3,258 nucleotides of DNA from the sequence record OR845342.1; one strand, 5' to 3'. The notes under the pieces were generated by a model. That model had not been told where the DNA came from. It saw only the letters and a list, made by a program, of their open reading frames with translations, and did not search any database. The position numbers were made by a program, and so were the translations under genes. Shown one piece after another: positions 54-3,000 of the stretch. The DNA comes from Escherichia phage ECO95 1-6-1. The first letter of the stretch is position 1; every line of letters starts with the position of its first letter.

Positions 54-3000
54 CAAACCTTGCGGATCTACATTTATGACCGGATTCAACGGATACTGAT
101 AAAAATTCCATCCCCCCTTCAGTCCAATCGGATCCTGAGTGATATATCGCCCGTGCAGCGGGTCATAATAGCGGTGGCGGTTGTAATACAGGCCGGACTC
201 CTCATCATACTGCTGCCCCGGCAGGCGGATAAGCTGCTGCAGCTGATGCGGGTTCTCTTCATTCAGCAGGTTGCCCCACTCATCGTATTCTGCGCACCAT
301 TCTGTTGCCCCTTCCTTACTGATAAGGGCCAGCGGCAGGCCGCGATGGTCGCAGTGGTACAGGTGGATTTTTCGCGCCGGCGTGTATACCGGGTCCATCT
401 GGCTTTGCATCTGCGCCACAGTCAGGCCGCACGATGCCAGCCAGCGGCGGCTTTCCTCACTCACCCGGTCAGCCAGGATTTCACTTTCCAGCCGGTCGAG
501 CATCTGCACCAGCACCGGCGGGAACACCACACTGCCACCGTCTTCGCCGCCGGACTGCTGAAGCGCATCCGCCAGGCTGCGGCGCTGCGTTTTCGCCAGC
601 TCACCGGTGGCGGTTTCAACCCTGATGAGTGGCGTGAAGCTCCCCGGCTGATAAATCGTCTGGATGCGGGTTCTGTCGTTCTGTATTGTGGTCAGCCGGT
701 CGCCGTCCCAGCCGTACCAGGTCACTTGCGGTTTCCGTGACAGCGACATCCAGCCCGTCAGGTCCCGTTCACGTCGCCACACCCGTTTTGCCACCCTGCG
801 GCCCAGCGGGTCGTAAAGATAGCGGCTTTCGACCAGCGGCTCTTCATATTGTGTCCGCGTGTAGTGCACCAGCCGGTGCTGACTGTCGTAATGGTACCGG
901 TGAGTCCGCTCATCATCCGTGCGGATAACCCCTTCCGGGATGAGGTCGGTTTTCTCTGTCAGCCTGCCGTGACGGTCATACCAGTAAAGATAGTGCGCGT
1001 CACGGGCGATACGGTTATCCGGCCACATGCTGAGGGTGCTGTCCGGGTGCAGCTCCGGGTCGGGCAGGCGGTTACCTGCCGGGTCCGTGGCATACGGGAT
1101 GCGGATATCCAGATTCGCTGCGGTGGTGTGAACGCCGGTCAGCCTGCCGGAGTCGCTGTAGCTGTAACTCCGGGTCTGGCGCGGGCTGCTGATGCGGATG
1201 AGTTCGCCGTTGTCGTTCCAGGTGTAATCGCGGTCATACTGCAGGCTGTTCAGGTGCTGGCTCTGTAACTGCCCGGCAGGGGTATAAGCGGTGGTGAGTT
1301 CATAACGGCCGAATCTGCGCAGCGTTTTCCGGTGCAGGCGGTCGCGGGTGAAATCCACCAGCGGTGTGTCGCCGAGCTTCATGCCTGCCAGCCAGCCGCT
1401 GCCATAGGTCAGCCATTCCACGGCGGGCAGGCTGTCCGGTATACAGCGGTTCGCCAGCCCCTGCGCGTTGTAAGCGTGTCTGGTCTCATGCTGCCAGAGC
1501 AGTGCTTCCGTCTGCGGGTGATGCACCGTCTGACGCTCACCGGTCAGCCGGCCTTTCTCATCATACCCGTAATGCACCGTCACCCGGTGCCCTTCGCTGA
1601 TATGGCTGATGTCTGTCAGCCAGCCGCGTTCGTCATACTGCCAGCGCTCTGCGGTTTCACCCTTCACGGTGCGGTGCGTGAGGCGGTCTGCTTCGTCATA
1701 GTGCCAGTGGGTGACCAGCCCCTCATCCTCGCTGCGGATAAGTTTGCCGGTCAGGTCGTGGTGATAACGCTGTGTGCGGCCGTCAAAGCCGGTTTCCTGT
1801 ATCAGCCGGTCGAGTACATCGTAACGGAAGGTGGTGTGGCTGCCGTTTTCACTGGTCAGGCGGATGACCCGTCCGGCAGCATCGTATTCCATACTGCGCG
1901 TCAGACCGCCCTGCGTGGTGCTGACGGCCTTTCCCCACGCATCGTACTGTGTCCCGTTTCTGCTGCCGTCCGGGGCAATGACGGTGGTCAGGTCACCGGC
2001 GGCGTTGTATTCATACCGCGTTTCATGGCCCTGCGTGTCTTTCACGGCAATTAACTGTCCACGGCTGTCGTATGAGCGGTACTGACTCAGCCCTTCCTCG
2101 CGGTGCACCGCCGTCATCTGCCCGAAGCGGTCATGGTCATAACGGGTTACATAACCGGAACAGTCGGTGAAGCTCAGCAACTGACCGTAACGGCTCCACG
2201 TCATGGTTTTCCGGCTGCCGGTGGCATCTTCCGTTGCGCAGGGTAAGTCACTGTGTGGATTATCATAACGGTAGCGGGTGATATCGCCGTCAGGGGCAGT
2301 TTCCTGAATCAGACGGCCCCATTCATCATATTCCCGGCGTATTTCCAGCCCGTCAGGCCCGGTGGCTGACGTTAACTGGCTGTGGTGGTTATAGTAAAAC
2401 GCCGATGCCCTGCCATCCGGCGTGGTGATGCGCGTGATGAGGCCCGTCACCACATCCGGGCTGTATTCTGTTGTCCTGCCTGCGGCATCCGTCTGTGCCC
2501 TGAGCCTGCCCACCGCGTCAAACTGACTCTGCGTGACGCTGCCGTCCGCGTGTTCCTTTTTCACCACCCGCTTCAGCCCGCCTTCACCCTGCGTGTGCAG
2601 GACTTCACGGCGGTTCAGGCTGTCGGTGATGGTGATGCGGTCTTTCTCATACTGATACGTGTAGCTTAAGCCTGCCGGGTTTAGCTGTTCTGTCACCCGC
2701 CCGTCGCTGTCGTAACGGTAACGGATTTCCGGCCGGCCCGTGTGACGGTGCGCCACCATCCGGCCCCGGTATTTATCATCGTAAGTAAAGCTGCGCACCT
2801 GTTTGCCACTACGGTCATACACCACCGCCAGTTCGCCGCGCGGCGTCCAGCCATAGCGCACCAGCGGCGCGGCAGGTAAATTCTCCGGGTATTCCGGGTC
2901 GTGCGTCAGCCACACGGCAGACAGACGGATGCCGTTGTCCCGGCCATATTCGGTGTAACCCGGCAGGGTATCAGGAAAAGCGGACGGTTCCGTCCCGCCG

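Follow-up and report, generated by a model that had tools for sequence, protein, structure and literature searches.

A/T-ending codons before the DPxGL motif of an Escherichia coli rhsA gene probably form a family-wide terminal block of the Rhs core

Does an abrupt switch to A/T-rich codons just ahead of the DPxGL motif of an Rhs gene mark the place where its toxin tip was brought in by recombination, or does the switch belong to the core? The question arises from a 3,258-nucleotide stretch of Escherichia phage ECO95 1-6-1 (OR845342.1), hereafter the window, for which a preliminary description had proposed that the A/T-rich codons were acquired with the tip through a crossover inside the 3' end of the core. 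The window holds the minus-strand core of an Rhs toxin gene (Table 1), one typical of E. coli rhsA. In NCBIfam profile searches its open reading frame matches NF041261 (RHS_core) over residues 1-1068, its score of 2236 bits exceeding the cut-off of 2000; YD repeats are present (TIGR01643, E = 2e-44), 10 stretches match Pfam RHS_repeat, and TIGR03696 (Rhs_assc_core) covers residues 991-1068; the frame has both the long YD/RHS repeat array and the repeat-associated core domain ending in PxxxxDPxGL that characterize an Rhs core. The NF041261 match begins at model position 180, and the Rhs N terminus, where a PAAR/VgrG-linked delivery region would be expected, falls outside the window. Genes at the rhsA locus of O157:H7-like E. 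coli match the sequence at 99.8% identity; it has five base differences from the closest O157-like relatives, four of them grouped at 1920-1929. Its locus is rhsA, flanked by yibF on one side and yibG/yibH/mtlA on the other.

Both NF041261 and TIGR03696 stop at residue 1068, the L of DPQGL, and the codon table places this motif closer to the window's first letter than had been thought. Position 83, near which DPxGL had been put, falls in the P codon (81-83) of the whole 10-residue PxxxxDPxGL motif (54-83), with DPQGL itself at 54-68. Likewise, the A/T-rich codons that had been listed do encode the 20 core-end residues named for them, but they occupy 54-113 and not 84-130. Codon numbers given below as -n are counted back from the L of DPxGL. 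The tip is complete in a 99.8%-identical O157-like ortholog (L001), where it is 162 residues long and followed by yibG; a Pfam search with this full 162-residue tip returned no family match. The yibG product is annotated in its record as a sel1 repeat family protein, and its Pfam matches to Sel1 and TPR_27 are weak and under the curated cut-offs. Read via this ortholog, the window gene has a variable, A/T-rich C-terminal tip and a small downstream gene, and yibG is a putative immunity protein for the window tip.

Table 1. Features at the 3' end of the Rhs core in the window
Feature	Window coordinates	Strand	Basis or remark
Partial Rhs ORF, 1085 codons	3..3257	(-)	Reverse-complement frame offset 1, stop-free, open at both window ends
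First 17 toxin-tip codons, GC3 0.18	3..53	(-)	Codon table
DPQGL, core/tip demarcation motif	54..68	(-)	Codon table; final five residues of core model
P-VINV of PxxxxDPxGL	69..83	(-)	First part unlike other-tip paralogs, same as orphans of window tip
A/T-rich nucleotide-invariant block, 10 residues	84..113	(-)	Core-encoded part of low-GC3 stretch
Intermediate-GC3 zone, 12 residues, ~0.6 family-wide	114..149	(-)	Several synonymous third positions almost fixed
CTG, L of QDPIGL	120..122	(-)	Hand-aligned (P2A sequence, PMC7043789) homologue of Salmonella ORF1 start CTG; CAGGAT at 132-137 precedes it
Interval bounding putative main-type/orphan-shared junction	82..279	(-)	Variable-site table

The break in codon usage ~20 codons upstream of DPxGL is real. 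GC3 in the last 20 core codons (54-113) is 7/19, or 0.37, versus 0.78 in the 41 codons directly upstream and 0.79 expected from the core's own usage for each amino acid (binomial p ~1e-4), and 0 of 1016 core segments of equal length are as low. For the strictly core part (84-149) GC3 is 0.43 against 0.75 expected, with 3 of 1014 core segments as low, and the codons scored for the A/T-rich block give 4/10 against 7.7 expected. The literal interval 84-130 has a GC3 of 0.47, a marginal result, with 24 of 1020 core segments as low. The maximum-likelihood change point is at codon 1036 (window 149), with codon 1048 (111-113) nearly as well supported; the likelihood is flat over positions ~75-170, and the step is therefore poorly placed from the window gene alone. 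Its sharp position comes from pooling relatives, which put it at codon -20 across 46 loci, equivalent to window 111-113.

The relatives used were 46-47 non-redundant sequences from enterobacteria to Comamonadaceae. We found that GC3 falls from ~0.75 to ~0.33 at the same codon, -20, across this sample; by part, family GC3 is 0.75 in the core, 0.33 in the -20:-10 bin and 0.30 in the tip, and the -20:-10 bin lies below the locus's own core value in 47/47 loci, which are interrelated and not independent replicates. The per-codon step at -20 is abrupt in enterobacterial and betaproteobacterial subsets alike, and it is also seen in loci of hosts whose genomes are GC-rich. Upstream of the step there is a shoulder, with GC3 of 0.61 at -40:-30 and 0.59 at -30:-20, and some codons of this stretch are close to invariant: Y-31 is TAT in 46/46 loci, D-27 is GAT in 83%, and I-25 is A/T-ending in 98%. 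Third positions of the block itself vary by lineage yet stay A or T. One could suppose that a short stretch rich in N, F, Y, and I codons, which are A/T-rich, is low simply by accident or through its amino acid composition, and in keeping with this, GC at codon positions 1 and 2 also drops here (to 0.38-0.45), and 2.4% of core segments match or undercut the literal 84-130. But the expectation conditioned on amino acids is 0.77-0.79 against 0.34-0.37 observed (0.77 against 0.34 in the family -20:-10 bin), the drop recurs in 47/47 loci, and no core segment reaches the 20-codon value. Chance or composition is hardly credible as a cause, and we rejected it on the amino-acid-conditioned test and the replication across loci.

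Whether the A/T codons at 54-113 were imported with the window tip, by a crossover ~20 codons upstream of DPxGL, is a matter for comparison with paralogs. We used K-12 and four other E. coli strains to stand in for same-genome paralogs, a set that does not include the remaining four rhs genes of the nearest O157-like genome. In the alignment, positions 82-122 are 100% identical in the window and in four main genes (K-12 rhsA and rhsC, and those of loci L004 and L005), which bear three tips unrelated to the window tip. Differences that go with the tip first appear at 81, 80, and 78, four to five codons before the D of DPQGL, and when the window, these four main genes, and three orphans are aligned, divergence from 81 is confined to the genes with other tips. 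Positions 69-83 are identical in all copies of the window tip, main or orphan, and among 15 aligned copies of either kind, 84-113 differs in a single copy and at one base (86). Paralog identity thus holds to position 82, essentially the result that the preliminary description had itself named as contradicting its reading, and the composition break is not specific to a recombinant gene, the same nucleotides being present in non-recombinant paralogs with other tips. Because A/T-ending codons are present whatever tip follows, they are uninformative as to when or where the window gene got its tip. An import of these codons would accord with the reality of the step, with its location inside the interval to which SNPs confine the junction (82-279), and with the core homology carried by orphans of the window tip; however, the nucleotide identity of the same codons in the four main genes, the presence of the step in 47/47 relatives, and the start of tip-linked divergence only at 81 together make it very improbable.

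The origin of the tip can be followed through its orphan copies. The window tip is that of the K-12 yibJ orphan, which lies downstream of rhsA-yibA; the K-12 orphan (L002:5899-6855) is homologous to the core over 471 nt (94.1% identity) and the L004 orphan (L004:4429-5202) over 261 nt (96.2%), and further orphan copies are present in L005 and L011. The window and O157-like strains have the yibJ-type tip fused directly onto the rhsA core, with yibG next. Relative to the K-12 orphan, the window has main-type bases down to 154, relative to the L004 orphan down to 129, and relative to the L011 orphan only down to 279, and these comparisons bound the switch to 82-154, 82-129, and 82-279, respectively. 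Below position 82 the window matches every copy of its tip exactly, and the variable-site table has no informative sites in 82-122. Judged from these sites, a junction between main-type and orphan-type sequence would lie somewhere in 82-279, within the last ~30-200 nt of the core. Two things keep its limits this wide: the 41 nt ahead of the P codon do not vary among the copies, and the core fragments of main and orphan genes are both mosaic. Of the proposal that the tip was swapped using orphan rhs fragments, the general mechanism is supported by the locus arrangement, the orphans' core homology and the SNP haplotypes; what falls away is the A/T-rich codons as the footprint of the crossover.

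We conclude that positions 54-149 are very probably the terminal block of the rhsA core, with A/T codons that are family-wide, and that this core is joined to a yibJ tip at a junction in 82-279. The segment would then be the 3' terminal block of the E. coli rhsA core, matching the end of TIGR03696, and its A/T-ending codons would be a property that the terminal block shares throughout the family, whichever tip follows. The sequence that travels with the tip would start at the P-xxxx codons, from window 83 downward, and the window gene would represent an rhsA core joined to a tip that K-12 keeps as its yibJ orphan. A plausible route is RecA-type homologous recombination in which the orphan's core fragment pairs with the main core, so that rhsA-CT and yibA would have been deleted. 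Alternatively, the main-plus-tip arrangement could be ancestral at the locus and that of K-12 derived by displacement, with no deletion in the window lineage.

A family-wide terminal block of this composition invites an explanation, and one candidate is a long shared history with tips. Because crossovers require some minimum length of homology, the codons beside a heterologous tip would nearly always be donor-derived, and repeated tip replacement would lead the last ~20 codons to take on the A/T composition of the tip pool while the protein is conserved. Consistent with this, GC3 over -20:0 (0.32-0.33) equals that of the tip (0.30), with the ~0.6 shoulder at -40:-20; GC3 of the last 20 codons tracks tip GC3 (rho 0.33, p = 0.03) and shows no correlation with core GC3 (rho 0.09); the sole locus with a GC-rich tip (L086) has a GC-rich block too; and in individual pairs, L027/L043 for example, the same unusual synonymous codons extend back to ~-30. 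Other observations are difficult to reconcile with it. Loci that share a tip (n = 18 pairs) show extra identity only in -10:-5, the bin of the xxxx codons (+0.12; 14/18 pairs), the difference at -20:-10 being within noise (+0.02); the block is identical across different tips within E. coli; the correlation with tip GC3 is partly due to one locus, with p = 0.07 once this outlier is removed; and the step at -20 is abrupt, with no smooth decay. On balance, such a shared history is possible but doubtful as the source of the A/T composition. As a separate observation, the weak correlation between block and tip GC3 is compatible with a long-term link of block and tip.

A second candidate is an expression signal embedded in the core end, such that the A/T codons from -20 provide a low-structure start for an internal ORF or a leader for toxin and immunity genes. 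Its precedent is Salmonella Typhimurium, in which transcription from promoter P2 starts 89 nt upstream of the PxxxxDPxGL-coding sequence, as confirmed by 5'RACE (Starsta et al. 2020, PMC7043789), and in which a CTG at the L of QDPIGL starts a toxic Rhs-CT, although the signal of the translational reporter is weak (PMC7043789). Promoter activity and toxicity of the CTG-initiated ORF1 in that system (PMC7043789), the position of the family step 3 codons after the CTG at -23, and third positions near the CTG that are almost fixed in divergent loci all speak for such a signal, as does the conservation of CAGGAT...CTG in the window (137-120), where CAG GAT CCG ATT GGA CTG provides an in-frame putative CTG start with an RBS-like AGGA upstream. 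However, codon -23 is start-capable (CTG, TTG, or GTG) in only 31/47 loci, the remainder having TTA, CTA, CTT, TTT, and others. The window counterparts of the Salmonella -35 and -10 hexamers in a hand alignment, ATGATG and TACAAC, are a poor match, with the final T missing, and a consensus scan of positions 1-400 on both strands found no sigma-70-like site. In particular, the scan detected no sigma-70 promoter ~95-125 nt upstream of the PxxxxDPxGL-coding sequence, a result that a weak or differently regulated promoter may escape, and no Salmonella-like internal promoter was found upstream of the tip in L001. Moreover, A/T-richness runs through the whole tip, so that a start-region signal is not needed to account for it. 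We therefore think that an embedded signal is distinctly unlikely.

Taken more generally, the A/T switch 20 codons before the end of DPxGL could be a maintained feature, either the 5' edge of the tip unit or the start of an internal toxin-only ORF, but we regard this as rather unlikely. If either were true, the functional boundary between core and tip would move upstream of the cleavage motif, and if the block is kept by selection or by obligatory co-transfer, this would refine the true start of the mobile or independently expressed toxin module. For the window itself the finding matters little, the exchange of tips through orphan fragments homologous to the core being established. The gene and its tip exchange are ordinary, already known Rhs biology, with one small regularity that is possibly undescribed: codon usage resembling that of the tip, with a sharp edge, in the last 20 codons of every relative examined, which is a point worth following. 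We found no earlier description of a pre-motif A/T step in the open-access literature searched, which does not include the classic Hill-laboratory papers, and when PMC2935791 and PMC3967940 were searched for the relevant terms, no A/T-rich step at -20 came to light. A wider lesson is that a composition break beside a polymorphic-toxin tip does not amount to a recombination junction without a comparison of paralogs.

Known systems offer close parallels to the core end. In Jackson et al. 2009, the terminal block of the core is named the 'hyperconserved domain' (PMC2935791), and core fragments on dissociated tips are described together with a two-step homologous recombination model (PMC2935791); recombination of main and orphan genes in Salmonella was shown experimentally, over 522 bp at 95% identity, in Koskiniemi et al. 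2014 (PMC3967940). The window system resembles both in that dissociated tips carry part of the core's hyperconserved 3' end, in a fused product of main gene and orphan tip, and in the extent of homology, 261-471 nt at 94-96% here being comparable to the Salmonella 522 bp at 95% (PMC3967940). Unlike the events described there, the window case is known from sequence alone, and deletion and an ancestral state are both possible.

The Salmonella P2 system belongs to a different Rhs clade, and the window does not conserve its promoter hexamers. Nonetheless, the window retains the homologous segment (…QDPIGL.GG.N.YQY..NP….DPLGL) as well as CAGGAT, which is RBS-like, and the CTG, and in the published Salmonella sequence GC3 falls by hand count from ~0.68 to ~0.4 and 0.2 from codon -20 (PMC7043789 supplement). 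The closest parallel in locus organization is rhsA-yibA-yibJ-yibG of K-12. Whereas the window type has the core fused to the yibJ-type tip, without rhsA-CT and yibA, it occupies the same place, with the yibJ tip and yibG downstream, and the cores are 97.4% identical across the 1437 nt that precede the motif.

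Only one long open frame is present in the window: it is on the minus strand (offset 1 of the reverse complement), has 1085 codons with no stop, and extends past both window ends. The NCBIfam equivalog model NF041261 (RHS element core proteins) matches residues 1-1068 at 2236 bits and TIGR03696 (RHS repeat-associated core domain) matches 991-1068; both matches end at the L of DPQGL, after which the variable toxin tip begins. The position of DPQGL places the last 20 core residues, which the preliminary description had noted as encoded by A/T-rich codons, at window 54-113; residues and codons were read correctly, but the interval assigned to them, 84-130, encodes a different stretch of 16 residues. 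At window 47, in the codon for the second tip residue after Val-Asp, there is a C (CTA, Leu) where all other copies of the same tip, main or orphan, have an A (ATA, Ile).

Landmarks at the end of the Rhs core and the start of the tip
Feature	Window	Strand
DPQGL	54-68	minus
Variable xxxx (VINV)	69-80	minus
P of PxxxxDPxGL	81-83	minus
Toxin tip, first 17 codons	3-53	minus

The proposed break in codon usage near the core end is borne out. The entire frame within the window has a GC content at third codon positions (GC3) of 0.71, the part upstream of the change point has about 0.73, and the 41 codons before window 150 have 0.78, whereas GC3 is 0.37 (7/19) in the 20 codons at 54-113. With the core's usual codon preferences, these amino acids would be expected to give 0.79, and none of 1016 core windows is as low. 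The core-encoded part at 84-149 (GC3 0.43) is matched by 3 of 1014 core windows, and the literal interval 84-130 (0.47) by 24 of 1020. The drop is genuine and is no effect of amino acid composition; both composition and chance are ruled out by the amino-acid-conditioned expectation together with the core-window comparison. Its position in the single gene is poorly defined, with a best change point at codon 1036 (window 149), codon 1048 (window 111-113) nearly as good, and a likelihood that is flat from ∼75 to 170.

Scanning a single genome for each species gave 76 loci whose products are related to the last 150 residues of the core, and GC3 was binned by codons before the end of DPxGL for the 47 nonredundant loci with at least 250 upstream codons. 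Against a core background of 0.75, mean GC3 is 0.70 to 0.74 from −100 to −40, 0.61 from −40 to −30, 0.59 from −30 to −20, 0.33 from −20 to −10, 0.32 from −10 to 0, and 0.30 in the tip. The −20:−10 bin lies below the locus's own core GC3 in all 47 loci, with 0.34 observed and 0.77 expected once each gene's own preference among synonymous codons is taken into account. At single-codon resolution, GC3 switches abruptly at −20, the second G of GG (window 111-113), both in the 36 enterobacterial loci and in the 10 others (Comamonas, Delftia, Thauera, and others). Third positions in the block are not simply frozen, as CCG/CCA/CCT and TTG/TTA/CTT alternate, yet they are A/T-biased. Farther upstream in this hyperconserved block, at window 114-149 and the homologous codons of the related loci (L012-L086), several synonymous third positions are nearly fixed among loci with core identities of just 50-75%: Y-31 is TAT in 46/46, I-25 is A- or T-ending in 98%, N-43 is AAC in 98%, and Q-28 is CAG in 96%. 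These point to nucleotide-level constraint or recent homogenization of the segment.

The A/T-rich codons had been interpreted as the footprint of a tip-acquiring crossover, an interpretation contradicted both by the family-wide drop and by alignment with paralogs. The last 700 nt were aligned with four main rhs genes carrying other tips (K-12 rhsA, an rhsC, and the main genes of E. coli strains L004 and L005; three tip types unrelated to the window's) and three orphans, i.e., dissociated tips with core fragments, carrying the window's tip; a further six main genes and another orphan with the window's tip were then added. Window 82-122, with its A/T-rich codons (GGA TGG AAT TTT TAT CAG TAT CCG TTG AAT CC), is the same in all four main genes with unrelated tips, so these codons are part of the core irrespective of the tip behind it. 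The first differences in the other-tip genes are at 81, 80, or 78, beyond which they are unrelated to the window, while copies of its tip stay identical (window 47 excepted). Complete nucleotide identity thus reaches the P of PxxxxDPxGL, four to five codons before the D, an outcome that the preliminary description itself had given as counting against the footprint interpretation. The codon-usage break is no evidence for a junction inside the core end; paralogs with unrelated tips, and the family at large, share it as a conserved feature of the end of the Rhs core.

Three explanations for the A/T-richness of the terminal block were weighed, of which chance or amino acid composition is ruled out as described above. 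The explanation we rank first, albeit tentatively, is a long-term shared history with tips, the block usually being co-transferred with them. Between the final 20 codons and the tip there is a weak GC3 correlation (rho 0.33, p = 0.03), but none between those codons and the core, and at the single locus with a GC-rich tip the block is GC-rich as well; a long-term link is therefore possible. However, among 18 pairs sharing a tip but not a core, which co-transfer should make more alike in the block, excess identity in −20:−10 is only +0.02, within noise, compared with +0.12 in −10:−5. Ranked second, and unlikely in our estimation, is an embedded expression signal. In Salmonella, transcription from an internal promoter starts 89 nt upstream of the PxxxxDPxGL-coding sequence, and a toxic Rhs-CT product is initiated by CTG at the L of QDPIGL (PMC7043789). 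That CTG sits three codons ahead of the step, at codon −23; the window retains CAGGAT...CTG at 137-120, but codon −23 is a possible start in only 31/47 loci, the promoter hexamers in the window are degenerate, and a consensus promoter scan of window 1-400 gave no site.

In O157:H7-like E. coli, a gene with yibF on one side and yibG, yibH, and mtlA on the other shares 99.8% identity with the window; this is the rhsA locus. K-12 has at this locus rhsA, yibA, an rhs fragment without an N-terminus (the yibJ orphan), and yibG; the window's tip and four xxxx codons are those of the yibJ orphan (window 47 differs), and in O157-like strains the rhsA core is fused directly to the yibJ-type tip, followed by yibG. 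Core homology extends over 471 nt on the K-12 orphan (94.1% identity to rhsA) and 261 nt on the L004 orphan (96.2%). Orphan tips carrying core homology are known for Rhs loci generally (PMC2935791), and recombination between main gene and orphan over 522 bp at 95% identity is experimentally shown in Salmonella (PMC3967940). The mechanism suggested initially for building such genes, tip replacement via orphan rhs fragments with core homology, is right.

At variable main/orphan sites, the window carries main-type bases down to 154 relative to the K-12 orphan, to 129 relative to that of L004, and only to 279 relative to that of a further E. coli strain (L011), itself a mosaic, and orphan-type bases from 81 downward; a junction would therefore lie somewhere in 82-279, inside the 3′ end of the core as initially supposed. 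A crossover there is compatible with the data, but the composition step does not mark it; the invariant block takes away all mapping resolution, and there is no tie between junction and step. In main genes EC7518 and AR_0119, which have the window's tip, the haplotype of the last 500 nt is that of the K-12 orphan throughout. There may have been several separate junctions, or main core and tip may have been joined ancestrally, with gene conversion later. Elsewhere in the gene, four of five differences from the closest O157-like ortholog fall within 10 nt (1929, 1925, 1922, and 1920); this haplotype is absent from all rhs copies fetched, and may be a short gene-conversion patch from an unsampled paralog. 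Downstream of yibG is a second, more diverged orphan (L001:13201-13419 in the O157-like strain, L002:7362-7580 in K-12), 75% identical to the core end, with internal stops and then a frameshifted Imm57 gene. It still encodes the 21-residue end block, which is thus recognizable even in a decayed fragment.

Several relatives are unusual. On a Comamonas MAG43 contig (L084:1816 onward), an Rhs tip starts VDLNLFPESENI, resembling the window's tip (window 3-53, L001:12206-12694) with a local alignment score of 177 over the first 80 tip residues (99th percentile of all locus pairs, 183); the cores are only about 60% identical. One uncharacterized toxin family (no Pfam match) appears to be shared between Betaproteobacteria and E. 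coli. Five short contigs assigned to Nanosynbacter, Bacillota, Collinsella, Brevibacterium, and Alistipes genomes or MAGs (L017, L022, L024, L058, and L065) have rhs core ends encoding segments with 73-98% protein identity to the query, and the tips of L017 and L022 have the same starting residues as Shigella flexneri copies L023 and L019; for all five, mis-binning of or contamination by enterobacterial DNA is the most likely explanation. In the last 32 codons before DPLGL of another S. flexneri locus (L053), a frameshift lies directly upstream of the 12-residue end block, and the preceding stretch in the block's frame, EVYHSGSDWAE, stands in place of an 11-residue sequence.

Limited term searches of the open literature found no earlier description of a sharp step at codon −20. 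The locus itself is of a known kind, and the family-wide step is a small regularity; published Salmonella sequences, from another Rhs clade, give the same GC3 picture by hand count.
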